IMG/VR virus record: IMGVR_UViG_3300033182_000487
Coordinates: 1-64,000 of that record
Strand: one strand, 5' to 3'
Source of the DNA: a virus
Length of the DNA stretch: 64,000 nt
Positions 5,335-60,260 of this stretch are shown here, piece by piece. The notes under the pieces are model-generated. The model searched no databases, was not told the origin of the DNA, and saw nothing but the letters and a program-made list of their open reading frames with translations. The position numbers were made by a program, and so were the translations under genes. Position 1 is the first letter of the stretch. Each line of letters opens with the position of its first letter.

Positions 5335-5349
5335 ATAGAGAGCCTACCG
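5335..5349 (-). promoter_or_regulatory. Class L (putative late) promoter motif CGGTA-N6-CTAT
   Basis: CGGTAggctctCTAT; the same motif recurs upstream of many other genes. Confidence 0.65.
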
Positions 5350-8728: not shown

Positions 8729-9568
8729 TTAGAGGGCCTCGTAGCACTCGACGTGGAACACGCCGCCGCCATCCTCGGCCTCACGGAAGGCCGCGAGGGT
8801 GCCGCCTTCGATGGTCTTGCCGCAGGACGCACAGGGGCAGGCGAAGGGCACAGCGACGGTCTTGACGCCAGCCTTGGCCTGCTGGGTGGGCACGGGCACC
8901 TCGTCCACGACGGGAGCGGGAGCCGCAGCCGCAGCCAGATCGGCCTCGGTCTTCGCGTCGAGCGCCGCAGCGACCTCGGCGAAGTCGGCCATGCCAGCCT
9001 GCTGGCACAAGCCAGCGAGCGGACAGCCGTTGCACTGGTCGGAGCGGGACGACCACGCGCCGAAGCACCGGGTCTGCTCCGCAGCCATGCGCCGCAGACC
9101 AGCGTCCGCAGCCTCGTAGGCGGCGCTGTTCACAGCCCCGGTCTGGGGAGTGAAGGACACGCCGTCCTTCGTGACCACGTTGAGGGTCACAGGAGCGGCC
9201 ACAGGAGCCTTCACAGGCTCGGAGCGGGTCTGGACAGGCATCGGGGCCTCCACGGGCGCAGGAGCCGCCACAGGGGCGTCCACGGCCCCGGAGAGGGCGT
9301 AGTAGCCACGGCGCGGGCAGCGGATGCTGCCCTCGGCCTTCAACTTGCCAGCGGCAAGCGTCACGGCCCGCTGGCCACGCGGGTAGGGCTTGCCACGCTT
9401 GGTCATGGTGCCCCAGGTGTCCCAGCCAGGGAAGCCGGGCTGGGCCTCGCACCATGCGAGGACCGAAGCGAAGCGCACCTCGCGCCCGAGGGGGCCGAGG
9501 TTAGAGAGAGCAGCGATGACGACTGGCTTCCAGGCGTCGGCGTTGTGGGTAGAGGGGAAAGCGAACAT
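8729..9568 (-). CDS. Early protein: winged-helix-like N-terminus, Ala/Pro linker, Cys-rich Zn-binding modules
   Basis: RCPRRGYYAL wing-like end; CFG..CNGCPLAGLC; CASC...FHVEC. Confidence 0.75.
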   Translation of the reverse strand: MFAFPSTHNADAWKPVVIAALSNLGPLGREVRFASVLAWCEAQPGFPGWDTWGTMTKRGKPYPRGQRAVTLAAGKLKAEGSIRCPRRGYYALSGAVDAPVAAPAPVEAPMPVQTRSEPVKAPVAAPVTLNVVTKDGVSFTPQTGAVNSAAYEAADAGLRRMAAEQTRCFGAWSSRSDQCNGCPLAGLCQQAGMADFAEVAAALDAKTEADLAAAAAPAPVVDEVPVPTQQAKAGVKTVAVPFACPCASCGKTIEGGTLAAFREAEDGGGVFHVECYEAL

Positions 9569-9638
9569 GGGTGTCTCCGTTGGCCCCTGTGGGGCACATT
9601 GAGTGAGTGAATGGGAGTGTGGGAGGCTCTTGCCTCCC

Positions 9639-9672
9639 GTAGTAGGTACGGGAACCGAAAGGCGCTCCAACC
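9639..9672 (-). promoter_or_regulatory. Class E promoter motif, copy 3, overlapped by a perfect 17-bp inverted repeat (9664-9704)
   Basis: GGTTGGAGC-gcctttcggtt-CCCGTACCTACTAC. Confidence 0.7.
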
Positions 9673-9711
9673 GCCGAGGTCGAAAAAACCTCGGCGGTTG
9701 GAGCCGGAGGA

Positions 9712-10911
9712 CTACAAGTCCTCGTCGGCGAACACGCCACCAGTGACGTGCGCGTCGATGAGGGACTTGGCGATCAGCCGGTTGTCCGGGTCGAGCCGGT
9801 CCAGCCACGCGCGGAAGCCCTTCTTGAGCAGACCCTTCGGCGGGGTGCCGTTGGCCAGCCACAGGAGGTCATCGCACTCGGCGAGGATCTCGCAGAGACC
9901 CCGGTGGGTGAGATCAGCCTCCAGGTCCATGTCGGCCTCGCCCTTGATGGCGAGCCGGATCGCGCCGCAGGCCGCGCCCAACTCGTCGAACAGGGCCGGA
10001 GCCTTGCTGGCGAGGTCAGCGAACTTGCCACGCAGGATCGCGCCCTCGTCCTTCCAGTCGAGGTACTCGGCCTCCACGAAGCGGCCCATGCGGTCAAGCA
10101 GGGACGCATCCATGGCACGGCTGGACATGCGACCGTCCACGTCGCCCGTCCCGCACGAGTTCGCCGTGAAGGCGAAGCGGGTGCCGGGGAACAGGGTGTG
10201 GACCCGACCCGTGGGGCCGACGAGCCGCTTGGAGGTGGTGTCCAGCATGAGCCGGAACTCCTCCAACTGCTCGGGGGTGCCCCGGTCAACGTCACTGAAA
10301 CAGATCAGCGCCGGGTAACGCTTCCCGTCGGTGCCCTCGATGCCGTGAACCAGCGCATCCCAGAGGATGCCGTAGGACCACGAGGTGCCCTGGGAGTCGA
10401 TCTCGCGGCTGTAAAACCACCGCTTGACGTCGGTCCCGCTGGTGAAGGTGTAGATCAGGCTCGGGGTGCGCGTGTCGGCGCAGTAGGCCGAGATCGCCGC
10501 GTCCTTGCCCGTGCCGCTCGGACCCCAGTAAAAGACGGGGTGCCCACGGCGCAGCGCCAGGACGACGCGACGAGCGCGCTCCAGCGCCTTGCCCGTGGAC
10601 GGCCACTGGTAGCCGTCGGGCTTGGGCAGGCACTGACCCTCCGCGATGTTGACGTTGACGGGCGCGGCAACGCCCATCATGTCATGGGAGAGGGTGGCCA
10701 GCGCAGGAGCGGGCTGGCGACGACGGCCCTTGCGCTTGTCCATGACGCCCTGGATCAGGGCGTGGGACACGGTCGCAGCACCGGGGTGCTGGGCGAGGTA
10801 GTCGGCCACCGAGAGGCCGTGGGCCTCGCGCAGGTGGTCGAGGAGGGAGTGGCTCTTGTGGCCACAGATCGCGCAGACGGCGCGGTCATCAACAAGGTGA
10901 AGTGCAGGCAT
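9712..10911 (-). CDS. CobS/MoxR-like AAA+ ATPase with N-terminal C2H2-type Zn finger
   Basis: CAIC...H...H; Walker A GPSGTGKD; Walker B variant CFSDVDR; TANS; MDASLLDRM. Confidence 0.85.
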   Translation of the reverse strand: MPALHLVDDRAVCAICGHKSHSLLDHLREAHGLSVADYLAQHPGAATVSHALIQGVMDKRKGRRRQPAPALATLSHDMMGVAAPVNVNIAEGQCLPKPDGYQWPSTGKALERARRVVLALRRGHPVFYWGPSGTGKDAAISAYCADTRTPSLIYTFTSGTDVKRWFYSREIDSQGTSWSYGILWDALVHGIEGTDGKRYPALICFSDVDRGTPEQLEEFRLMLDTTSKRLVGPTGRVHTLFPGTRFAFTANSCGTGDVDGRMSSRAMDASLLDRMGRFVEAEYLDWKDEGAILRGKFADLASKAPALFDELGAACGAIRLAIKGEADMDLEADLTHRGLCEILAECDDLLWLANGTPPKGLLKKGFRAWLDRLDPDNRLIAKSLIDAHVTGGVFADEDL

Positions 10912-10982
10912 GGTGTCTCCGTTGGCCCCTTGCTGGGGCACTGTGAGTGGAAGGGAATGAGAGAGGGTCAGGAGCGACCCTC

Positions 10983-11016
10983 GTAGTAGGTACGGAAGCC
11001 CGGTCAGGCTCCAACC
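10983..11016 (-). promoter_or_regulatory. Class E promoter motif, copy 4
   Basis: GGTTGGAGC-ctgaccgggct-TCCGTACCTACTAC. Confidence 0.7.
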
Positions 11017-11033
11017 AGACCGGGCGAACTTTT

Positions 11034-11417
11034 TCAGTCGAACATGGCGAGCATCGCCTTGAGCAGGCGGTACTCGTCGCGACGGGCAGCGATGTACCGC
11101 TCGCCGACGGCGATGATGTGCTTGCACACCATGCCGCGATCCTGGTGGTCGCGGCAGGTGCAGGACATGCGGCGGACACGGCCACGGACGGGGCCTTCGA
11201 TGACCACGTTGTAGACGGTGTCGCTGGTCGCGCTCTCCACGGTCGCCGTGATGGCTCCCGTGCTCTTGCTCTCGACCGCCTTGACGACGGCGACGGTCGC
11301 CGCGCGCTGGGCACGGCGGGACTCGGCACCGTCCAACAGGATGCGGACGGCCTTGCCGCGCTCGATCAGCGTGGCCTGCCGAGACTCGATCTCGGCGATG
11401 GTGATTGCCTTGGACAT
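11034..11417 (-). CDS. SWIM zinc-finger protein
   Basis: YNVVI...SCTCRD...VCKHIIAV. Confidence 0.8.
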   Translation of the reverse strand: MSKAITIAEIESRQATLIERGKAVRILLDGAESRRAQRAATVAVVKAVESKSTGAITATVESATSDTVYNVVIEGPVRGRVRRMSCTCRDHQDRGMVCKHIIAVGERYIAARRDEYRLLKAMLAMFD

Positions 11418-11447
11418 AGGATGCCTCCGGGGTTTGATGTTGGGTTC

Positions 11448-11481
11448 ATAGGGGGTACGGAAGCCCGCCGACGCTCCAACC
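11448..11481 (-). promoter_or_regulatory. Class E promoter motif, copy 5
   Basis: GGTTGGAGC-gtcggcgggct-TCCGTACC. Confidence 0.65.
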
Positions 11482-11548
11482 AGCCGGGCCAGATTATTTC
11501 GGCCCATGGGGTGTCTTACTCGATGATCCCACGTCGCCGACCCCCTGC

Positions 11549-11583
11549 CCGCCATCCCCTCTACTGCGTAGAGGGGATGGCGG
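11549..11583. repeat. Perfect 16-bp inverted repeat with 3-nt loop at the divergence point
   Basis: CCGCCATCCCCTCTAC-TGC-GTAGAGGGGATGGCGG. Confidence 0.8.
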
Positions 11584-11726
11584 ATTTCTCGAAATCCTTG
11601 TTGCGGGGCTGGGGTCACTGGGATCACGGCGCTGGGGTCGCTGTTGCACCAGGTGAGAGATCGCTCCCCCACGATCCCGCGCCAACGCCCGCTTTCGCGC
11701 TTTTTCGGGCTTTTTTGGGGCTGGGT

Positions 11727-11760
11727 GGTTGGAGCGTGGTTGGGTTCCCGTATCTCCAAT
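11727..11760 (+). promoter_or_regulatory. Class E promoter motif, copy 6
   Basis: GGTTGGAGC-gtggttgggtt-CCCGTATC. Confidence 0.65.
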
Positions 11761-11833
11761 GTGGGGGCACACCTGCCCCCCCTCCCTTCCCTTCACACTC
11801 AACGTGCCGCGACGAGCGGCCACTGGAGACACC

Positions 11834-12937
11834 ATGAGCAAGCAAACCGCCCCACAGGGCACCCTGACCTTGGATGGTCGCAAGTGGATCGGAGCCGCGC
11901 AGGCTTCGGTCAACTCGATCCTCGGCAACGACGCCCCGAAGGTCTCGTCGCGAGGCCAGCAGTTTTTCAATATCAATAGGTGGACTGCTCGGACCCTGTT
12001 CGCGAAGTTGGCCGAGTCGATCAAGTACGGCAACGTGATGGACGAGTGGACCGTCCGCAACGCCATCGCCCTCGCCAACGGCACCAGTGTGCCGAACCGG
12101 GAGATCGTCATCGCGGCGGTCCCTGACCGCATCCCAACGTGGCTGGCCCGGTCCAGCGTCGGGGGCCGCTACCACGAGGCGTGGCACGACCTGTACTCGT
12201 GTACCCGTGACCTCGACTTCGACGAGGTCTTCGGTCCGCTGATGCAGCGGTGGCCGATGCTCGCTGACTGGAGCCCGTTCGTCGGTGCCGTGCTCACCTG
12301 GGGCAACGTCATCGAAGACATCCGCATCGAGCGGCATGGCTGCAAGGAGCATCCCGGCTCCCAGGACAAGATGCAAGACTTGCAGGACTTGATCCTCAAG
12401 TTGGAGGCCGACGGTCGCACGGCTGCGGAGCACAAGGGCCTGCCCACGAACGACGACATGGCTGTGGTCATGGGCGCGTTCCGTGATCTCGGACTCGGCT
12501 ACGAGACCGAGGCCCAGCAGGCTGCGCTCGCTGGCTACCAGCAGCGGTCGCCCGCTGGCTGGCGTCTGGTCACCCAGGGTGCCCTTAAGCCCCTCCTGGA
12601 CCGTGCCATCACCATGGGTCGGGACGATGATCTCGGTCACTGGTGGCTCGCCATGGAGGTCGTGGCTGTGCTCGCGACCCTCGGCCAGCAGCCGCAGGGA
12701 CGTCCCCAGCCTCCGCAGGACGGCGGCGGCGAGGGCCAGCCCGGTCAGCCCCAGCCCGACGGTGAGGGCGGTGAGGGCGGCGACAGTAAGCCTCCCCGGT
12801 TCCCCCTGTTCAAGGTGGGCGACCGTGCGAAGGCGAAGCGCGGCCCCCATCGCGGCAAGATCGTGGAGGTCACGTTCGCTGGTCCTCCCGACGAGGACGG
12901 GCGGCAGACCCTCAAGTTCGCCCCGGTCCTCGACTGA
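11834..12937 (+). CDS. CobT-like N-terminal (metallopeptidase-like) protein with C-terminal KOW-like motif
   Basis: YHEAWH (HExxH), GNVIEDIRIE, acidic Gly-rich linker, FKVGDRAKAKRGPHRGK. Confidence 0.7.
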   Translation: MSKQTAPQGTLTLDGRKWIGAAQASVNSILGNDAPKVSSRGQQFFNINRWTARTLFAKLAESIKYGNVMDEWTVRNAIALANGTSVPNREIVIAAVPDRIPTWLARSSVGGRYHEAWHDLYSCTRDLDFDEVFGPLMQRWPMLADWSPFVGAVLTWGNVIEDIRIERHGCKEHPGSQDKMQDLQDLILKLEADGRTAAEHKGLPTNDDMAVVMGAFRDLGLGYETEAQQAALAGYQQRSPAGWRLVTQGALKPLLDRAITMGRDDDLGHWWLAMEVVAVLATLGQQPQGRPQPPQDGGGEGQPGQPQPDGEGGEGGDSKPPRFPLFKVGDRAKAKRGPHRGKIVEVTFAGPPDEDGRQTLKFAPVLD

Positions 12938-19011: not shown

Positions 19012-19026
19012 CGGTAAAGTGCCTAT
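19012..19026 (+). promoter_or_regulatory. Class L promoter motif
   Basis: CGGTAaagtgcCTAT. Confidence 0.65.
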
Positions 19027-19062
19027 AGGATCGGGAAGGTCAAGACTTCTGGAGTGACCCCG

Positions 19063-19569
19063 ATGCCCCGCACCCTGACTGCCGCCGACCGATCTGCACT
19101 CATTCGCCTCGCGGCGACCATGGACAAGGGCTCTCCTGAGAGGAAGGCCATCCTCGCCGGACTGGAGAAGTCCGCGTCCCTTCTCATGAAGGAGTGGGAG
19201 GCCGGGCAGGAGCCGCTGTTCAAGGCGGGATCAAGCAAGGAGGAGAAGTACGTCCAGTTGTTCCGTGATCTCGCCGACAAGCGCCGCAAGACCATCCAGG
19301 TTGACCTCAAGGGCGTCATGGGCGGCAGCACCAACGGCCTCCGCGAGTTCAAGCGGGGTCGCATGGGCCGCCCGAAGCGTTGGCGTGGCGGACGGAAGGG
19401 CCCCTTTGAGCGGGTCAGCCTCTCCATCGTCCCCCTCGACGACCAGGGCAACCCCATCAAGATGCGGTCCGGCTACAAGTTGTGGCTTTCCGAGTACGAC
19501 GACGGCACGGCAGACGTGAGCGCGTCCATCGGTGACATGGCCATCATGATCAACGATATGAAGGCGTGA
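19063..19569 (+). CDS. Late protein with N-terminal tag A
   Basis: MPRTLTAADRSALIRLAATMDKGSPERKAILAGLEKSAS. Confidence 0.75.
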   Translation: MPRTLTAADRSALIRLAATMDKGSPERKAILAGLEKSASLLMKEWEAGQEPLFKAGSSKEEKYVQLFRDLADKRRKTIQVDLKGVMGGSTNGLREFKRGRMGRPKRWRGGRKGPFERVSLSIVPLDDQGNPIKMRSGYKLWLSEYDDGTADVSASIGDMAIMINDMKA

Positions 19570-19587: not shown

Positions 19588-19761
19588 ATGCCCCGTACCC
19601 TTACTGCCGCTGACCGCTCCGCACTCATTCGCCTTGCCTCGACGCTTCCTGCCGGAAGCGAGGAGCGTCAGTCCATCTTGGCTGGACTGTCGAATGCCCA
19701 TGTAAAGTCCGAAAAAACCTACACGAACGAGCGTGGGCTCAAGACTCCACGCCCGACGTAG
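19588..19761 (+). CDS. 57-aa micro-protein consisting mostly of tag A (not in ORF track)
   Basis: MPRTLTAADRSALIRLASTLPAGSEERQSILAGL...; first 17 codons identical in amino acids to 19063, with only synonymous changes. Confidence 0.6.
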   Translation: MPRTLTAADRSALIRLASTLPAGSEERQSILAGLSNAHVKSEKTYTNERGLKTPRPT

Positions 19762-22110: not shown

Positions 22111-22533
22111 CTACCTCCTGTTGGTCCATGTGACGCGGTAGCCCTTGTCCCCGGTACGAGGCGAGGTCACATGCTCAATCTTGATCCGAGCACTTCCTGC
22201 CTCCTGCGCTTTCGCCAACGCCTCTCTGTAAGCCCTCATCCCAAACTCGTCTTCGGCCACCTCACCGTCGTGACCGGCTTCTTCATACAGGTAATCCTGG
22301 AGCCAGTTACGGACATCCTTCTCGGTGAGGGCGGGCCCGATCAGATCGTGGTTGTCTCTTAGGAACGCCTTTCCGTTCCTGTCCAACAGGACAGCGACGT
22401 CGAAGCCCAGATGCTCCAACACGGCTTTTGGGCTGCCCTTCCCACGACCCTTCCTATCCACGTCGATGAAATCACGGCTGGCGATGCGACCGAAGTCGTA
22501 AAGGGAGGCGACACGTCGAGAGGATGGCTGCAT
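22111..22533 (-). CDS. Hypothetical late protein
   Basis: Class L motif upstream; N-terminus MQPSSRRVASLY...RIAS. Confidence 0.7.
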   Translation of the reverse strand: MQPSSRRVASLYDFGRIASRDFIDVDRKGRGKGSPKAVLEHLGFDVAVLLDRNGKAFLRDNHDLIGPALTEKDVRNWLQDYLYEEAGHDGEVAEDEFGMRAYREALAKAQEAGSARIKIEHVTSPRTGDKGYRVTWTNRR

Positions 22534-27649: not shown

Positions 27650-28047
27650 TGTCCCTCCAGATAGATAAGCGCGGCGCGAAGCACCGAGGGGTCTTCCCCC
27701 AGCAGGCCGAGAGCGGTGTTGCACTTCCGGCAGAGGAGACCGCGAATCTCCCCTGTGGTGTGGCAGTGGTCTACGTCCAGCCTTCCATTGAGGCTGTCTT
27801 CGGACGGTCGGCGGCAGATGGCGCACGCCCCCGCCTGTGAAGCGAGGCGTTGGTGGTAGTCCTTCTTGGTCACCCCGTACCGCTCGCGGAGATGCCCCCA
27901 ACGACGGTCGCGCTTGTAGTATTCGCGCTTGTAGTCCTTACAGAAGGCTTCACGACCACCCCCTGCTTTCAGTGAGCGTCGGTAGTAGGCGGTTTCGGAG
28001 TCCTTCGATTCCCCACACTTCGTGCAGGTCTTCGTCAACCCTGGCAT
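27646..28047 (-). CDS. Endonuclease VII-type (HNH) homing endonuclease
   Basis: CAIC...LDVDHCHTTGEIRGLLCRKCNTALG; inserted between nrdA and nrdB. Confidence 0.88.
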   Translation of the reverse strand: MPGLTKTCTKCGESKDSETAYYRRSLKAGGGREAFCKDYKREYYKRDRRWGHLRERYGVTKKDYHQRLASQAGACAICRRPSEDSLNGRLDVDHCHTTGEIRGLLCRKCNTALGLLGEDPSVLRAALIYLEGQ

Positions 28048-31034
28048 GACAGACACTCCTCCTCTGCGACGTAGTCCTTGAGCGCGACCCGTTCGATCTT
28101 CGCCGACACCTTGTCAGGGTCTACCCCGGCGGTGGTGCGGAGGTAGTAGAGGCCCTTGAGGCCCTCCTTCCATGCCTTGATGTGGGTCATCAGGACGTAG
28201 TGGCGGTCACTTCCGGCGGGGAAGAACAGGTTCACCGACTGACCCTGGCAGATGAACGGCTGGCGGTCGGCAGCGTGGCCGACGACCCACCGTTGGTCGA
28301 GTTCAAAGGCGGTCTTGTAGACGTCCTTCTCCCACTCGTCGAGACAGTCGAGGTGCTGGACTGACCCTGCGTTCGTCGTGATGCTGGACCAGACGCGCTC
28401 GCGCTCCGTGGGGTCGGTGATCTTCTTCGCCAGGAGACGCTCCAACTCGGGGTTCCGCACCTGGTGTGATCCCGCACGGGTCCGGTGCGTGTAGGCGTTG
28501 GACTTCCAGGGCTCGATGGACGGGCTGATGTTCAACAGGATGCTGCTGTTGGCGTTGGGGGCCACGGCGAGCAGGTGCGAGTTGCGGCGTCCGGTCCCCT
28601 CGCCGTCCAGGTACTCACCCTTCTCGGCGGCCAGGGCCTCCGTCGCAGCCACAGCCTCGGACTGGATGTGCTGGAAGATCTGGAGGTTCACGCCCTTTGC
28701 CAGGGCCGACTCCCAGGGGAGCCTCCTCTGCTGGAGGTAGGCGTGGAAGCCCATCGCTCCCAGACCGAGGCTGCGCTCACGGGTGGCCGAGTAGACGGCC
28801 CGGTGCAGTTCGTCGGGGGCGTGGTCGATGAACACCTGGAGCACGTTGTCGAGCAGCCGGATCAGATCACGCACCATCGGGGTGTCGCGCCACTCGTCGA
28901 ACTTCGCCAGGTTGACGCTGCTGAGACAGCAGACCGCCGTGCGGTCCTCGGACGTGGGGAGGTGGATCTCGTTGCAGTTGTGGGTGACCATCCCGTTGCA
29001 CACGAAGTGATGGTCTTCCGAATCAACATTCACGCAGAACACATCGTCCGTCCCCACGGCTTCGACGGACACGACTTCGGAGACCTTGCGTGAGTTGTTC
29101 CGGTACTTCCGCTTCGGGATCTTGACCCCCTTCCTCGTGAGGAATCCGGTGGCTTCCTCAAAGGCCAACGCATCGGTCTTGTTGCCGATGACGATGCGCC
29201 ATGCGTCCTTCACCTCGTAAGGGGCATGTGACCCCTTCCCGTCAGGAAGCATGACGGTGCCTGACTTACGGTGAAGATAGAGGCTGGCGCTCATGCCGAG
29301 ATTGCGGAGAATCAGAAGGATGTCGGAGAGGAAGTCTTTGTCGATGTTGGTCAGCGACAGGTAGACGGGAGCACCCTTCCCCCCTCCCACATTCACGGTG
29401 CCATCCGCGTAGAACAAGCCTCGGATGTACTGCCATTGAGTCGCTTCATCGGATGACCAGATCCAGTCTGGCACTGAACCCTTCACGAATCCCAACCCCG
29501 ACTTGTGGAATGTGCGGCTGGAAAGGCGGACCTTCCGCACATCAGAGCAACCCGTGTTCTGGTCGCGGAACCTCGCTGGGTCGCGAGGCCGTGACCCAAC
29601 AACATCCCCGGTTCCGTTCCGAACCTCGTAGGTGTCGCACCCGTACTTGTGGTGTACGCGGTCGAACCGTTCCTGAACTTCGGGAATGAGGTCGAAATCA
29701 GGCTCCCACAGGTCGATCATGTGCATGAGGGATGCTTCATGCTGGGTTCCGTCGGCTTGGTACAAGCCGAGCAAGAACGCCTCGTCTTCCATCGAAACCT
29801 GACCGAACAACCCCTTGTTCGTCTGGACATGAACGCGGTCACCGATGACGAGATCATCACACCGGACATCCCCCCTGTCTGTCTTGACCTTGTGGTACTC
29901 CGTGACCGTGTGGGTCATGCCGTTCTTCAGCGTGATCCGAAAGACCGGAGCATCCTGCTCGACCAAGAGCATGGCCGAAGACTTCTGGGGCAGGTTGTTG
30001 TCGAACACGGTCAGATCATCACCTTGTTCGTACAGTTCCCTTGCTGTCAGCAGTCCCCGGTCGGTGACCACCCGCTGATGTCCCGCAACGCAGAGGTTCG
30101 ATCCGTTGATGCGAAGCCCCAAACGCTTCAACGTCTCGGGGAGTGCCCGGTTCGCGGCGTCGATGAAGTTGAGGTAGGGTTCGCCCGTGCGGCTGCGGAC
30201 CTCGATGATCCGCTGGAACAGGTCACGGGCAGGCATCGTGTCGCGGATGCTCCCGTCGGCGGGGTCCACGAGGTTCCATTCCTTGCCCTCGATGCACGCC
30301 TGCATGAAGTCGTCGGTGATGTTCAAGGCGTTGTGGAGATTGAGGCACTTCCGGTTGGGATCACCGCCCGTCGGGAGTCGCATCTGCAAGAACTCCAGGA
30401 TGTCGGGGTGCGAGACGTCGAGGTAGGCCGCGTAGTTGCCCTTCCGCGTCGTGCCTTGTCGGTACGCGGTCATGTCGGCATCGACGGTCTTGAGAAACGG
30501 GATCGGGCCGGGGGACTTGTCCGACACCGAACGCACGGAAGACCAGTGACCTCCGACGCCACCGCCCTTGACCGCACACCACCGGAGTTCCGCCGTGTGG
30601 GAGATCAAGCCCTCCAGGGTGTCCGGGACGTACTGCAAGAAGCAGGAGATGGGCAGCGACTTCCACTTCTCGCCGGGCACGGGAGCGTTGCTCAGGACCG
30701 GGCTGGCGAACATGAACCAGCCCTTGCTGGCGTAGTCGTAGATGCGTTGAGCGAAGCCCGTGTCACCCTCGCAGTAGGCGACGGCGGCACGGGCGAAGGC
30801 TTCCTGTGGGGACTTCTCGTCGGGGCGCATGTAGTACGCCTTGAGGAGGTCCAATGCGAACGGGCTGAGGTCTTCATCTCGGTCCAGAGAGATCTGGATG
30901 CCGTGGCAAGAGGAACGGGGCTGTGATGGGGTCAACGCCTTCTCCTGTCGATCAGTGCTAAGGAGGAGCGATCTCGGAATCTCGTGCCAGGTCGTGTTCA
31001 TTTCGCTGTCAGACAGGGGCACAAGTTCAGCCAT
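28035..31034 (-). CDS. nrdA: Ribonucleotide reductase class Ia alpha subunit with intein
   Basis: FASPVLSN, PISCF, GGGVG, GSNL|CNEI, SLGLG, APNANSS, CQGQS, KGLYYLRT, CLSCQG. Confidence 0.95.
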   Translation of the reverse strand: MAELVPLSDSEMNTTWHEIPRSLLLSTDRQEKALTPSQPRSSCHGIQISLDRDEDLSPFALDLLKAYYMRPDEKSPQEAFARAAVAYCEGDTGFAQRIYDYASKGWFMFASPVLSNAPVPGEKWKSLPISCFLQYVPDTLEGLISHTAELRWCAVKGGGVGGHWSSVRSVSDKSPGPIPFLKTVDADMTAYRQGTTRKGNYAAYLDVSHPDILEFLQMRLPTGGDPNRKCLNLHNALNITDDFMQACIEGKEWNLVDPADGSIRDTMPARDLFQRIIEVRSRTGEPYLNFIDAANRALPETLKRLGLRINGSNLCVAGHQRVVTDRGLLTARELYEQGDDLTVFDNNLPQKSSAMLLVEQDAPVFRITLKNGMTHTVTEYHKVKTDRGDVRCDDLVIGDRVHVQTNKGLFGQVSMEDEAFLLGLYQADGTQHEASLMHMIDLWEPDFDLIPEVQERFDRVHHKYGCDTYEVRNGTGDVVGSRPRDPARFRDQNTGCSDVRKVRLSSRTFHKSGLGFVKGSVPDWIWSSDEATQWQYIRGLFYADGTVNVGGGKGAPVYLSLTNIDKDFLSDILLILRNLGMSASLYLHRKSGTVMLPDGKGSHAPYEVKDAWRIVIGNKTDALAFEEATGFLTRKGVKIPKRKYRNNSRKVSEVVSVEAVGTDDVFCVNVDSEDHHFVCNGMVTHNCNEIHLPTSEDRTAVCCLSSVNLAKFDEWRDTPMVRDLIRLLDNVLQVFIDHAPDELHRAVYSATRERSLGLGAMGFHAYLQQRRLPWESALAKGVNLQIFQHIQSEAVAATEALAAEKGEYLDGEGTGRRNSHLLAVAPNANSSILLNISPSIEPWKSNAYTHRTRAGSHQVRNPELERLLAKKITDPTERERVWSSITTNAGSVQHLDCLDEWEKDVYKTAFELDQRWVVGHAADRQPFICQGQSVNLFFPAGSDRHYVLMTHIKAWKEGLKGLYYLRTTAGVDPDKVSAKIERVALKDYVAEEECLSCQG
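28977..30092 (-). mobile_element. Intein (372 aa) with LAGLIDADG endonuclease, inserted just before the NrdA catalytic Cys
   Basis: CVAGHQRV..., TEYHKV, LGLYQADG, IRGLFYADG, MVTHN|C. Confidence 0.93.
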
Positions 31035-31137
31035 CGTGGGATTCCTCAAAGATTAGTGTTTTTGCTGGCGGCAGGCGGACGAGAGCAGCCATCGAGCCTT
31101 TGATGAAGCCTCTCTGGACCCGCCTCTATAGGGCTGG

Positions 31138-36118: not shown

Positions 36119-36179
36119 CTCGATTTCTCCACAAAGTGTCCACATTCCCCCACCAACCCGGCTGTGGTACACGGTGCCT

Positions 36180-36229
36180 CGGTAGGCTCTCTATGCGCCG
36201 CTCAGGGTGAGGCTCGGTACTCTCTCTAT
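36180..36229 (+). promoter_or_regulatory. Two tandem class L promoter motifs
   Basis: CGGTAggctctCTAT (36180) and CGGTActctctCTAT (36215). Confidence 0.7.
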
Positions 36230-36261
36230 GGGCACCGTCCAGCAAGACCTTCGGAGACACC

Positions 36262-38898
36262 ATGATCCCCTCAGACATCCAGCCCCTGATCCGCCTGGCC
36301 GCGACCCTCCCCGTAGGATCACTCGACCGCCGCACCATCCTCGCCTCCTTGAAGAAGCAGGCCGCGTTCGCGGACGACCTCGTTGCACGGGTGGACGTGA
36401 TGTCGGGGTCCATGGGCGGCAAGGACGCGGACCGTGGCCCTCTGTTGAAGGCCGTCCAGGCCGGGCTCCCGGAGAGCGTGTTCAACCTGGAGGAGTTCAC
36501 GGCTGAGGCGTTCCCTCGCTACGGGGTGACCTCCCTCGACGAACTCAGGAAGGCCGAAGACCTCACCGACGAGGACCGCGCCGAACTCAAGTCTCTGGAA
36601 GACCGGATCAAGCCTTTCAGCGCCATGGTCGCGAAGGTGGAGAAGTGGAGCGGGACGAAACTGGGGCAAGACCTCGCCGAGGGTCTCAGCCTGGTCTCCG
36701 GCAAGACCGACCACAAGTTGCGCGAGGCCGTCTGGGCCGGGGTCGCGAAGGGGATGCACGGCGACGTCGAGAAGTTGGAGTCTGGACGGCGCGTCGTCAC
36801 TGACACTGGTCGGGGGTCACTGACCACTCCTGGAGCCCTGGGCACCGAGCCGGAAGACCTCGTGCAGGTGATGCTGGCGGGCGGCATCGAACTGCCGGGC
36901 ATGATCTTCGACAAGAACATGTCGGACAAGACCTACTACGAGGGCGTCCGTGTCCGAGGCACGTTCAAGCCCCGGAAGGAACTGTTCAAGCCGGGCACCA
37001 GCGTCTACACGCTGGCTGGCGCGAAGATCAAGCCGACGAAGATCTCGGAACTGAGGTCGGTCCGAGGCTACGCGAAGTCCGTGGCTTCGACCACGGCCAT
37101 CGACTGGAAGCGGTCGGTCCACATCGGCACCGAGTACATCCTGGCCGAGGGTGATGCCAGTGCTCCTGATCCTGAGCACGCCATGAACATGGGCGGCAAG
37201 GTGAGCCTGGAGTCCCTGCTGGGAGCGGACCTCATTGACGGGGTCACGGTCAGCAAGCAGATGACTCTGGCCCGGTACTACATCAAGAAGATCCGCCAGG
37301 TCATGAAGCGCGCCCTTCCCAAGGGTGTGCAGGCTGCGGTCTGGGAGGCTGTCGCCGAGATGATCACGAAGGGGATCAACCCCTGGAAGGGTCAGGGTCG
37401 CGGTGGCGAGTTCGCCGTTGACTACAACGCCATCGAGAAGTTCCTCGACACCCGTGACGGGCAGAAGATCCTCGACGAGAACGAGATCACCGCCGACTCG
37501 ATCAACAAGAACAACGTCCAGAAGAACTGGGTCCGGGTCCGCGAGAAGATGCTCAAGGCCCTCTCGCAGTTGAGCGACGATGATCTCCTGGCTTCCATCC
37601 ACCTGTCCCTCGCGGCAGGCGGGATGGTGGACGACGTGCCCGAGTACATCAAGAAGATCAAGCGCGACAAGGATCTCTACCAGACCTACATCAGCGACAT
37701 GCGGAAGTACGGCTCGACCCGCGTTGCGGAGCAGGTCGTCAAGCGTGCCGCCGAGCGCCGCGCCATGATCCGGCTCGCAGCGACCCTTCCCGTGGGATCA
37801 CCGGAGCGTCGGGCCATCCTCGCTGGCTGCGAGAAGATGAAGTCCCCGGCCATGCAGGAGTCCTGCGAGGCCATGAAGGCTGGCAAGAAGCCCGGCAAGG
37901 GCAAGGCGAAGTCCGACGACAAGAAGAAGGACGACGGCAAGATGCCCGCCGAGTTGCTGGAGAAGTTCAAGGCGAAGAAGGCCGCTTCCGGCCCTCACCC
38001 CAAGGGTCGCAACTGGAAGGACAAGGGTGGTCGCTGGGTGTGGGCAGGCTCCGATGGTGATCCTGCATTCACCGTGGTCGAGAAGTCCGCTCCGTTCGGC
38101 TCCTACTACAAACTCCAGATGCTTCTCCCCGATGGGGGCATGTACGCCGCTGCGAACCAGAAGACCGAGAAGGAAGACCTGTTCAAGCGTGCTGCGGAAC
38201 TCTACAAGGCGTGGGGCAGCGCAGCCGGGTTCAACCTGAGCCGCCAGCCCGAGCGGTGGAGCAAGATGGCTGGCAAGGGCGACGTGCCCGACGCTCTCAA
38301 GAAGCACCAGTTCACCTCCGAGGACAACCCCAACCCAAAGGGCAACGACAAGGACGGCGACGGCAAGTCCAACGAGCCGAAGCCCGCTGGCCTCAAGGGC
38401 AAGAAGGCTGGTCGCGCTTCCGGTCAGATCATGGCCGAGATCACCAGGTTCGCCGATGCGTTCCTCCCCTCCCTCACCAGGAGGGTTCCTGTGGAGTCTC
38501 TGGGTGATCCCAAGACCTTGAAGCAGATCCAGAACTCGTTGGTGTACGCGATGTCCGATCTGGCGAAGGACGTGGTGATGGAGGAGCGTTTCGGACCCAA
38601 GGGTGGTGGGCAGTACAAGCGGCAGTTCGGCAGCGTCCTGTCCAACCCTCCCCCCTTCTCGTCGCAGACCGCTCACTGGTTTGAGGAGAACCGTGACGCG
38701 CCCAAGTACACCGCTGCATGGAAGGCGATGTCCGGTTGGGCTGCACGGGAAGGCATCTCTCTCGATGCTGGTGCCCGCATCCGTGCCGCAAACAGCAAGA
38801 AGGCCGCGCTGATTCGCCTTGCCGCCGCTCTCCCGGTCGGCTCCTCCGAGCGCAAGACCATCCTCCGCATGGCCGCCTTGAAGGAGATCCGTCCGTGA
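36262..38898 (+). CDS. Late polyprotein with three tag A copies and a sigma-factor-like domain
   Basis: Tag A at N-terminus, middle and C-terminus; EPEDLVQ, AKSVASTTAIDWKR, region 4-like helices. Confidence 0.8.
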   Translation: MIPSDIQPLIRLAATLPVGSLDRRTILASLKKQAAFADDLVARVDVMSGSMGGKDADRGPLLKAVQAGLPESVFNLEEFTAEAFPRYGVTSLDELRKAEDLTDEDRAELKSLEDRIKPFSAMVAKVEKWSGTKLGQDLAEGLSLVSGKTDHKLREAVWAGVAKGMHGDVEKLESGRRVVTDTGRGSLTTPGALGTEPEDLVQVMLAGGIELPGMIFDKNMSDKTYYEGVRVRGTFKPRKELFKPGTSVYTLAGAKIKPTKISELRSVRGYAKSVASTTAIDWKRSVHIGTEYILAEGDASAPDPEHAMNMGGKVSLESLLGADLIDGVTVSKQMTLARYYIKKIRQVMKRALPKGVQAAVWEAVAEMITKGINPWKGQGRGGEFAVDYNAIEKFLDTRDGQKILDENEITADSINKNNVQKNWVRVREKMLKALSQLSDDDLLASIHLSLAAGGMVDDVPEYIKKIKRDKDLYQTYISDMRKYGSTRVAEQVVKRAAERRAMIRLAATLPVGSPERRAILAGCEKMKSPAMQESCEAMKAGKKPGKGKAKSDDKKKDDGKMPAELLEKFKAKKAASGPHPKGRNWKDKGGRWVWAGSDGDPAFTVVEKSAPFGSYYKLQMLLPDGGMYAAANQKTEKEDLFKRAAELYKAWGSAAGFNLSRQPERWSKMAGKGDVPDALKKHQFTSEDNPNPKGNDKDGDGKSNEPKPAGLKGKKAGRASGQIMAEITRFADAFLPSLTRRVPVESLGDPKTLKQIQNSLVYAMSDLAKDVVMEERFGPKGGGQYKRQFGSVLSNPPPFSSQTAHWFEENRDAPKYTAAWKAMSGWAAREGISLDAGARIRAANSKKAALIRLAAALPVGSSERKTILRMAALKEIRP

Positions 38899-40025: not shown

Positions 40026-40255
40026 CGCGGGGTGAAGACCCCCCACACCAACCTCCCGCCCCGAGCGGGATCAAGGACTCGTTCAACAAGTCCTTCCAGG
40101 TGGCCTTCGTCACCACGACCTTCATCATCATCGCCTTCGCAGCCCTCGGGGTCAGGATCGCCCGGCGCTTGAAGCGGGACCGCGAGCGGAACAAGAACAT
40201 CATCGACGCTGAGTGGACCCCGGCGGACGACCCGGATGACCTGATGCTTCGGTAG
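40022..40255 (+). CDS. Small membrane protein
   Basis: One TM helix. Confidence 0.55.
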   Translation: MTRGEDPPHQPPAPSGIKDSFNKSFQVAFVTTTFIIIAFAALGVRIARRLKRDRERNKNIIDAEWTPADDPDDLMLR

Positions 40256-40264
40256 GCTGCCTAT
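40250..40264 (+). promoter_or_regulatory. Class L promoter motif
   Basis: CGGTAggctgcCTAT. Confidence 0.65.
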
Positions 40265-56273: not shown

Positions 56274-56369
56274 ATGACCCCCTCAGACCACAAAGCCCTG
56301 ATCCGGCTGGCGAGCACCCTTCCTGATGGGGACCGCCTTCGCCGTGCGATCCTGCGGAGCGTGAAGTAG
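56274..56369 (+). CDS. 31-aa micro-protein that is tag A alone (not in ORF track)
   Basis: MTPSDHKALIRLASTLPDGDRLRRAILRSVK; GAGG RBS; own class L motif. Confidence 0.7.
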   Translation: MTPSDHKALIRLASTLPDGDRLRRAILRSVK

Positions 56370-59119: not shown

Positions 59120-59603
59120 GCGAGCCGCCGAGGAGGGGATCCTTGAAGAAATCCTCCGTGATCACGCGGACCTGGACTACGACCACCCGATCTTCATCCC
59201 GTACCTGACCTACACCTACCAGGGGAAGCGGACCCTGCTCTCCGTCATGGAGGGCTACGTCTTCGTGGCGTCTGGCTTCGACGACGCCAGCCGCGACCAC
59301 TTTGCCCGATCCCCCTACATCAAGAAGATCCTCACCCGAGGGGCCAACCACTACTCCCCCTACGAGACCGTATCTCAGGCTTCGGTGGACTCTTTGCGCC
59401 ACCGACTACGCGAACTGATGGCGGTCGAGATCCGGGAGGGGATGGAGGTCCGTATTGTGGATGGGCCACTCAGTGGTATAAGTGGGAGCGTGGTGGGGGT
59501 GTTTGATACACATGCGACCCTCCTCGTAGAGATGCGGTCCATACGCGCCATCCAATATCTTCCGTGCTTCCTCCTACGACCCGTGAGTGACGAGCATGAG
59601 TAA
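59064..59603 (+). CDS. nusG: NusG-family transcription factor
   Basis: NGN domain (WVVL, MEGYVFV) and KOW (GMEVRIVDGPLSGISG). Confidence 0.8.
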   Translation: MDARDQTTWVVLELSHHGERAAEEGILEEILRDHADLDYDHPIFIPYLTYTYQGKRTLLSVMEGYVFVASGFDDASRDHFARSPYIKKILTRGANHYSPYETVSQASVDSLRHRLRELMAVEIREGMEVRIVDGPLSGISGSVVGVFDTHATLLVEMRSIRAIQYLPCFLLRPVSDEHE

Positions 59604-60237
59604 CTATTGGTGCAGCCACATTGTCTTAGACCCCTCCGACATCGAGCGCATGTTCTCCAACGAGGACGGCCTCTCCACCTTCCCCGGCTCCACGGAGGAA
59701 CTCTCGGACGAGAGCAAGGCCGAGTTGGAGCAGGTCAAGGGGGTGCTGGACCAGATCCCTCCCCGCGAAGCGGACTTCGTCGAACTCTACTTCTTCCAGC
59801 GCATCCGGCAGACCACCATCGCCTCGCTGTTCAACATCAGCCAGCCAACCGTCTGCTACCGCCTGCAACGAGCCGCAGCCCGGATCCGCTACCTCCTCGA
59901 CATGCCCAAGTACGACCCGTGGTTGATGGAGCAAGACCTCCGGGGCGTCCTCACTGACCCGAAGGACATCCAGATCATGATGGGCATGGTCGCCACGACC
60001 TGCCAGAGCGAGGTCGCGAAGGAACTCGGGGTCACGCAGGGCTTCGTCCGCCATCGGTACTTCCGCACCATCGGACGGCTCCAGAAGATGCGGGGGATGG
60101 AGCAGTACGTCCGGGTCTTTGAGCACGTCGCGGCGAACCTCAACATCCTCAAGGAGACCCACAGGTCGAAGTGGTCGGAGCCTGTGATCTACGTCGTCTC
60201 CGAGCACCCGACAGCGGTCGAAGCACAGCCCGCGTAG
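59596..60237 (+). CDS. Protein with two sigma region-4-like HTH domains
   Basis: IPPREADFVELYFF...QTTIASLFNISQPTV; CQSEVAKELGVTQGFV. Confidence 0.75.
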   Translation: MSNYWCSHIVLDPSDIERMFSNEDGLSTFPGSTEELSDESKAELEQVKGVLDQIPPREADFVELYFFQRIRQTTIASLFNISQPTVCYRLQRAAARIRYLLDMPKYDPWLMEQDLRGVLTDPKDIQIMMGMVATTCQSEVAKELGVTQGFVRHRYFRTIGRLQKMRGMEQYVRVFEHVAANLNILKETHRSKWSEPVIYVVSEHPTAVEAQPA

Positions 60238-60245
60238 GGGTAGGT

Positions 60246-60260
60246 CGGTAGTCGCTCTAT
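60246..60260 (+). promoter_or_regulatory. Class L promoter motif
   Basis: CGGTAgtcgctCTAT. Confidence 0.65.

Follow-up and report, generated by a model that had tools for sequence, protein, structure and literature searches.

A conserved, modular protein bearing three copies of a portable tag in an uncultured huge phage

The window analysed here, a stretch of 64,000 nucleotides (nt), comprises the first 64 kb of a 113,148-bp IMG/VR virus record (IMGVR_UViG_3300033182_000487) from an uncultured phage. At the 25% completeness estimated by CheckV, a contig of this length points to a huge phage with a genome of roughly 450 kb, and our analysis covers about a quarter of that genome. One open reading frame (ORF) of the window, 36262–38898 (+), encodes P0001, a real, conserved, modular protein of 878 residues that carries three copies of a portable 28-residue tag. 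We tentatively read P0001 as a late, tag-addressed cargo or assembly protein, probably cut at motifs in the junctions between its modules, which would release a core of ~51 kDa with a helix-turn-helix-like domain. A preliminary description of this DNA had proposed that the core might be a sigma factor, possibly carried in the virion, a central claim for which sequence and profile tests gave no support.

The ORF described there is a real one. Its codon-position GC is gene-like for the contig (GC content at third positions, GC3, 0.85), a search of 5.8 billion proteins returned 15 homologues at 35%–96% identity, and the locus is syntenic in four related phages (L098–L101). The family alignment follows a single fixed layout, kept in 16 full-length proteins: tag, core, tag, Lys-rich linker, variable insert, DKDGDG module, second variable insert and C-terminal tag (Table 1). 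P0001 diverges faster than its surroundings, with 50% identity to its counterparts in L098 and L099 compared to 80%–96% for the neighbouring genes. Pfam and PHROGs searches with the whole protein gave sub-threshold noise only (DUF6964, E 0.0055; phrog_37604, E 0.15). Searches of PDB sequences with P0001 and with the family profile found nothing better than dynein, BBK32 and calmodulin (E 0.03 or worse). For cultured phages, neither the P0001 family nor a 171-residue tagged ORF had a tblastn match among 50,697 phage records.

All three tag copies are recognised by a hidden Markov model (HMM), which together with the conserved layout bears out the earlier picture of a tag-flanked modular protein. 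Copy 1 is a predicted helix-turn-helix hairpin, with helices at residues 3–15 and 21–48 of the full-length model. With the same HMM, 127 of 163 related proteins show a total of 236 copies, of which 96 are N-terminal, 95 internal and 45 C-terminal. On the contig there are nine copies in seven genes, two of them within the sheath/terminase/portal block, and a 31-codon ORF at 56280–56366 is made up of the tag alone. In the manner of a targeting-type peptide, the tag is common to otherwise unrelated proteins, and the head domains attached to it differ. Other tagged proteins bear an Alt-like ADP-ribosyltransferase domain and Fusello_VP2 modules (a fusellovirus capsid protein family). Direct comparison by phmmer gave no match between T4 Alt and the tagged proteins, and a strict R-STS-ExE regular expression for ADP-ribosyltransferases matched none of them. 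As observations apart, two adjacent small genes (19054–19569 and 19588–19760, +) share nearly identical first 30 residues (MPRTLTAADRSALIRLA...), a duplicated tag with different or no cargo, and many tags end in ILAG, slightly resembling double-glycine leaders.

Modules are exchanged between proteins. Insert X2 of P0001 is 95% identical in P0021, a 376-residue protein that lacks the core, and X1 has a single distant relative, P0085. At the syntenic locus in relatives the tags and tail are kept and the head varies: the full core is present in L098 and L099, and L100 has only the alpha/beta part at the thresholds used. L101 (IMGVR_UViG_3300048031_000487; 9170–12460) encodes a protein of ~1,090 residues with four tags, the linker and the DKDGDG module behind an unrelated head, and also contains an inserted relative of ORF 90305–91762 (phrog_2859). 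Most of the 731 matches that a profile search found among 1.84 billion representatives fall on the tag, on the linker or on the DKDGDG module and not on the core.

The core falls into parts with different distributions. Its N-terminal sub-domain is confined to the close family and has no specific fold match. The middle sub-domain contains the strings previously assigned to sigma region 2 and the most conserved Gly-rich loops of the family. In searches with sub-profiles, 23 of 26 proteins have both the alpha/beta and the helix-turn-helix-like part, and among them are compact, tag-flanked forms of 415–540 residues. Together these parts form a conserved unit, and the core may therefore bind nucleic acid; besides the Gly-rich loops, the family alignment shows invariant D, E, K, R, H and S residues in it. 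An R...S-x-Y-T...E-L-E pattern in the middle sub-domain, which recalls ADP-ribosyltransferases, was considered and rejected, as Pfam finds no family of that kind and the spacing is odd. Beyond the core, the Lys-rich linker is preceded by a tag in every architecture listed and has KFxAKK at its end across the family. In the DKDGDG module D696, D698, G699, D700 and G701 are invariant, forming an acidic loop like that of EF-hands and dockerins, and by this likeness the module may bind Ca. An invariant Cys pair behind tag 2 (AGCEK-x9-CE; 37825–37875, residues 522–538), which recurs with the linker module in 60 of the 163 proteins, may form a metal or disulfide knuckle.

Table 1. Features of P0001 and its upstream region, with examples of the looser promoter-like pattern (window coordinates unless contig positions are indicated).
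Feature	Position (nt)	Strand	Basis
Promoter-like motif copy 1 (CTCGGTAGGCTCTCTATG)	36177..36194	+	sequence read; conserved in relatives
Promoter-like motif copy 2 (CTCGGTACTCTCTCTATGGG), 33 nt before ATG	36213..36232	+	sequence read; conserved in relatives
GGAG ribosome-binding site, 6 nt before ATG	36252..36255	+	read from sequence
ORF P0001, 878 residues	36262..38898	+	GC3 0.85, homologues, synteny in L098–L101
Tag copy 1, residues 3–31, then KKQAA	36268..36354	+	tag HMM E 1.5e-15
N-terminal all-helical sub-domain, residues 36–150	36367..36711	+	pLDDT about 90; 17 proteins
Middle alpha/beta sub-domain, residues 151–300	36712..37161	+	invariant alignment columns; 26 proteins
GTEPEDLVQVML, residues 194–205	36841
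YAKSVASTTAIDWKR, residues 270–284	37069
C-terminal helical sub-domain, residues 325–445	37234..37596	+	weak sigma4/LuxR-type helix-turn-helix resemblance, two insertions
IRQVMKRALPKGVQAAVW, residues 344–361
DYNAIEKFL...NNVQKNWVRVREKMLKAL, residues 387–433
Conserved helical end of core, residues 446–495	37597..37746	+	alignment; low-confidence model
Tag copy 2, residues 496–524, then invariant GCEK ... CE	37747..37833	+	tag HMM E 1.5e-16
Lys-rich linker module, residues 527–576, ending KFKAKKAAS	37840..37989	+	recurs in 60/163 related proteins
Variable insert X1, residues 577–671, ending SKMAG	37990..38274	+	indel position in family alignment
DKDGDG module, residues 672–716 (PDALKKHQFTSEDNPNPKGNDKDGDGK)	38275..38409	+	present in 65/163 proteins
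Variable insert X2, residues 717–848	38410..38805	+	95% identical copy in P0021
Tag copy 3, residues 845–872, C-terminal, SKKA before it	38794..38877	+	tag HMM E 2e-16
CGGTA-N6-[CT]TAT example	5335–5348	-
CGGTA-N6-[CT]TAT example	19013–19026
CGGTA-N6-[CT]TAT example	40251–40264
CGGTA-N6-[CT]TAT example	60247–60260
CGGTA-N6-[CT]TAT examples, contig positions	67602, 69287, 79330, 84133, 86770, 87447, 100631

The joints between modules carry a recurrent short motif. The preliminary description had seen the tail as small modules split by KKAAS, KMAG, KKAGRAS and RAA; those strings are present, and the pattern [KR]-x-A-[SGA] is enriched in the tail (ten matches, 3.0 expected; 0.05% of shuffles reach ten). 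In the whole protein it occurs 13 times compared to 4.4 +/- 2.0 in shuffles, a count that Lys/Ala-rich composition and RLAA strings in the tags inflate, and within the 463-residue core it is absent (1.6 expected). Twelve of 15 homologues keep the site just past the N-terminal tag, and in the family alignment the variable inserts start and stop at x-x-A followed by G, S or A. If a maturation protease separates the pieces, the joints after and between modules would be its most likely cut sites. A separate observation is a Peptidase_C39_2-like cysteine peptidase at 79342–80253 (+; E 6.4e-11), which lies directly behind a tag gene at about 78890, has its own copy of the promoter-like motif, and could be a lysin or a processing enzyme for tagged proteins.

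Upstream of P0001 are two promoter-like motifs (Table 1). Tandem copies of CTCGGTAG/C-N5-CTATG are kept in L098, L099 and L100 while the spacer around them diverges, and the core of copy 1, CTCGGTAG-N5-CTATG, is invariant in these three. A looser pattern, CGGTA-N6-[CT]TAT, occurs 19 times on the contig compared to 2.5 in shuffles, and nearly all copies lie 13–70 nt 5' of an ORF on the same strand. It precedes five of the seven tag genes, and ORFs adjoining terminase and portal (84172, 86811), a candidate fibre gene of pectinesterase-like type (87502) and a putative neck gene (22111–22533, -). No sigma-70-type promoter was found. What had been described as tandem class L promoters is thus upheld as two conserved motif copies of a class common to virion-gene neighbours, and we would call the class late because of that company.

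The sigma proposal drew on strings in the core that were likened to regions 2 and 4 of extracytoplasmic function (ECF) sigma factors. The strings are all present (Table 1), and by sequence their resemblance to those regions is at chance level. With all filters off, sigma2 and sigma4 HMMs score the family at -1.5 to 2.4 bits, within the spread of unrelated phage proteins (best 0 bits for sigma2; 2.4 bits or less for sigma4, compared to 14.4 for a control, ORF 59587–60237), and the matches fall away from the quoted strings. No sigma family emerged from Pfam for P0001 (E up to 1), for 23 family members (E up to 10) or for six fragments around the alleged regions, four of them short and two long (including residues 186–216, 262–295 and 186–295). 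P0001 and its family gave no sequence match to Sigma70_r2 (PF04542) or to positions 1–90 of TIGR02937, and the region-4 models PF08281 and PF04545 matched neither these nor the fragments. When all six frames of the contig were scanned with Sigma70_r2, Sigma70_r4_2 and TIGR02937 (a full-length ECF model), ORF 36262–38898 gave no match and ORF 59587–60237 was found, in which Pfam confirms two Sigma70_r4 units (E 4.3e-12); this recovery indicates that the search method works on this genome. The family profile run against all PDB sequences listed no sigma factor. Aligned by hhalign to a small home-made sigma alignment (E. coli RpoE, FecI, FliA, RpoH, RpoS and RpoD plus RpoE orthologues), the family reached 3.5% probability, and the best local pairing set the "region 2.1" string (EDLVQVM) on sigma region 4.2 (EEIAAIM), which shows such helical strings to be unspecific. 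No relation to the contig's true sigma4 ORF was detected by hhalign. That ORF (59587–60237, +; 216 residues) has its two Sigma70_r4 units at TIGR02937 positions 93–162 and 131–163 and no region 2, is about 80% conserved in three related phages, and is a candidate phage transcription factor, perhaps for the CGGTAG-N5-CTATG promoters.

The full-length AlphaFold model has a mean pLDDT (predicted local distance difference test) of 51, and a VIA search with it matched just a low-confidence long helix at residues 714–777 and was discarded. A core-only model built from 23 sequences is better (mean pLDDT 71.7; predicted template modeling score, pTM, 0.50) and has four parts: a helical part at residues 36–150 (pLDDT about 90), an alpha/beta part at 151–300, a helical part at 325–445 (pLDDT 76–88) and a low-confidence helical end. 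AlphaFold with Foldseek on about residues 35–490 had been proposed as a check on the sigma fold; the core model returned nothing from PDB or BFVD at E 0.001 or better. In the ESM Atlas no feature match was usable, and the best structural neighbour was a viral cluster at a template modeling (TM) score of 0.41. In VIA comparisons the whole-sigma rows 4xln_F and 9n9q_C superpose on the core with root-mean-square deviations of 12.9 and 16.7 Å and a Z no higher than for sigma4 alone. No VIA row supports a sigma2 fold; residues 151–300 are barely covered, and no row falls on that part alone. A fold-comparison row with 5wuq_A shows 24% identity. As modelled, the sub-domain at residues 325–445 weakly resembles the DNA-binding region 4 fold, with its putative helix-turn-helix interrupted by two insertions of about 18 and 20 residues. 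About 60 residues, predicted to form a four-stranded unit, separate the two "region 2" strings; this unit contains the family's most conserved Gly-rich positions and in the model is unlike sigma2.

A highly derived ECF-type sigma factor (sigma2 and sigma4 with insertions) that is made late, packaged, processed and injected, and that steers host RNA polymerase to early promoters, strikes us as extremely improbable. It has on its side the joint occurrence of the middle and C-terminal sub-domains, the family consensus strings DAEDLAQV and VAMNAAVDWKR, which recall regions 2.1 and 2.3, the fact that no RNA polymerase gene was found on the 113-kb fragment, and the existence of phage sigma-like subunits that lack sequence similarity, phiKZ gp68 and AR9 gp226 (PMC13282480). 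Set against these are the Pfam, six-frame, hhalign, unfiltered-HMM and PDB results, and the conserved beta unit that splits the two "region 2" strings. Unlike sigma factors of the ECF/sigma-70 type (Sigma70_r2, Sigma70_r4_2, TIGR02937), P0001 has no sequence or profile signal for either region and no detected sigma2 domain, and its putative helix-turn-helix, with its insertions, is embedded in a large tagged protein. The head is also swapped out in L101, and a different head domain at this locus is more easily explained by an exchangeable cargo than by an early sigma factor that the phage cannot do without. Packaged RNA polymerases are known, as are sigma homologues in jumbo phages without their own RNA polymerase (PMC13282480); in the literature searched we found no report of a packaged sigma factor. 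Such a factor would be a new way to start a phage infection, and the evidence here gives it no support. A broader version, in which the pair of sub-domains at residues 151–445 is a virion-delivered, promoter-directing DNA-binding factor, sigma- or activator-like and outside the sigma-70 family, addressed to the head by the tag and freed by a protease specific for [KR]-x-A/[SGA] (the slash marking the cut), seems to us very unlikely as well.

The explanation that we favour, with less than even confidence, is that P0001 is addressed to the head. The tags at its start, middle and end would most likely dock it to a common partner during head assembly; a maturation protease would then cut at the [KR]-x-A-[SGA] joints and separate the modules, with a large product of about residues 33–495. 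What is established is the conserved architecture, the exchange of modules, the enriched junction motif and the promoter-like motif common to virion-gene neighbours; docking to the procapsid, cleavage, packaging, ejection and DNA binding are inferred for P0001. For packaging and injection the only indirect support is the presence of the same tag on Alt-like ADP-ribosyltransferases and Fusello_VP2 modules. The database record of T4 Alt is annotated [quoted passage not shown]. Several points weigh against this explanation. The case for virion presence and for cleavage of P0001 is indirect, and three of the 13 [KR]-x-A-[SGA] matches are RLAA within the tags. On the fragment, with its 25% of the genome, the head proteases Peptidase_S77 and S78 (PF03420, PF04586) were not found, and the sole peptidase seen is the C39-like one. 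The gene sits amid replication-type genes (ribonucleotide reductase, clamp-loader-like and RecD-like helicase genes), outside the structural block. The T4 system has no counterpart to internal tags, C-terminal tags or tag-only mini-genes. Finally, the nearest large relative by portal, the 485-kb LR745208.1 (66%), has no match to the tag or family profile, but in a 297-kb relative (L103) about 18 genes give 24 matches; the tag system is therefore lineage-specific.

Alternatively, the protein may stay in the infected cell. The tag would then dock to a phage-made hub (such as a chaperone, a compartment, or a factory for replication or transcription), the core would be a DNA-binding regulator or enzyme, and the [KR]-x-A joints would be no more than flexible linkers rich in Lys and Ala. 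We consider this possible, if rather doubtful. The position of the gene within a conserved block of replication-type genes, the helix-turn-helix-like fold and the failure to find a head protease on the fragment all suit it, and internal and C-terminal tags and tag-only ORFs are what a general docking module might show. It sits less easily with a promoter-like motif common to genes by terminase, portal and the putative neck gene, with tag genes inside the structural block, with tags on Alt-like and Fusello_VP2 proteins, and with a junction motif that avoids the core and clusters at indel boundaries. Less probable still, and in our view unlikely, is a head-interior assembly protein of scaffold or inner-body type, whose three tags would cross-link capsid or core subunits through multivalent binding and for which the small tagged and tag-only peptides would be further scaffold parts. 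Three tags per chain at conserved positions, a largely helical, Lys-rich tail and a promoter motif of late-type class would fit such a role, as would the predicted helix-turn-helix hairpin of the tag, a shape also seen in the P22 scaffolding protein at its coat-binding end. A head domain that evolves fast and can be swapped between related phages would be unusual for a scaffold, however; the Gly-rich loops and invariant residues of the core look more like a binding or catalytic site; and the gene lies far from the portal and terminase genes. The remaining probability belongs to some explanation outside those considered here.

The nearest parallel to a head-addressed P0001 is the T4 capsid-targeting sequence system, in which the internal proteins IPI-III and Alt are cut by the prohead protease gp21 (PMC3012670, PMC9026906). 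Both have a short peptide on unrelated proteins, followed by a short motif that in P0001 is a candidate cleavage site, an Alt-like ADP-ribosyltransferase among the proteins so marked, and, to judge from the promoter motif, probably late expression together with head genes. Unlike the T4 signal, the present tag has about 28 residues, is predicted to form a helical hairpin and also occurs internally, C-terminally and alone; the candidate cut motif is [KR]-x-A/[SGA] and not L/I-x-E, and no gp21-type protease was found on the 113-kb fragment. In phiKZ and SPN3US, propeptides of inner-body and ejection proteins are removed by the head protease (PMC5694885, PMC10052503, PMC13282480). The likeness to P0001 lies in the giant-phage setting, in a large set of abundant head proteins whose fold is unknown and which are processed and in part injected, and in paralogous modular families. 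Those inner-body proteins are cut at S/A/G-x-E. Unlike the P0001 family they have no reported common portable tag, and neither BFVD nor PDB gave a sequence or fold match between them and P0001. The coat-binding helix-turn-helix of the P22 scaffold and the cargo-loading peptides of encapsulins are small modules sufficient to address proteins into an HK97-fold shell. The tag is like the P22 module in its predicted helix-turn-helix and conserved basic residues, and one copy, LPVGSLDRR, recalls the encapsulin motif LTVGSLRR; no sequence relation is claimed in either case, and the GSL triplet is not kept across tag copies.

P0001 is a clear example of a lineage-specific portable tag and a conserved C-terminal cassette combined with unrelated or swapped heads at a fixed locus, under a promoter-like motif common to neighbours of virion genes. 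If the tag addresses the capsid, the T4 targeting principle would reach as far as huge phages, with another signal and another cut site, and the tag would be a natural handle by which large capsids could be loaded with proteins.

Several other genes were recognised on the contig. The portal (85063–86766) matches phrog_16240 (E 2.8e-33) and is 66% identical to that of LR745208.1, an uncultured phage, 36% to that of Tunturiibacter phage Tunturi_5 and 26% to that of Bacillus phage G. Also recognised are a sheath-like protein of 1722 residues, a weak match to the terminase large subunit, the RecD-like helicase and the ribonucleotide reductase subunits, one of which bears an intein: the large subunit (28035–31049, -) is split by an intein with a LAGLIDADG endonuclease. 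A further intein lies in a 931-residue ORF at contig 101640–104435 (+). The 448-residue neighbour of P0001 (34638–35984, -) is transcribed divergently from it and conserved in relatives (60% identity), has an Ala/Pro/Glu-rich spacer and matches nothing in Pfam or PHROGs. At contig 96317–100606 (+), a 1429-residue protein fuses a PAP2 phosphatase domain (E 3.8e-12) to the catalytic core of a eukaryotic-type topoisomerase IB (E 3.8e-22).

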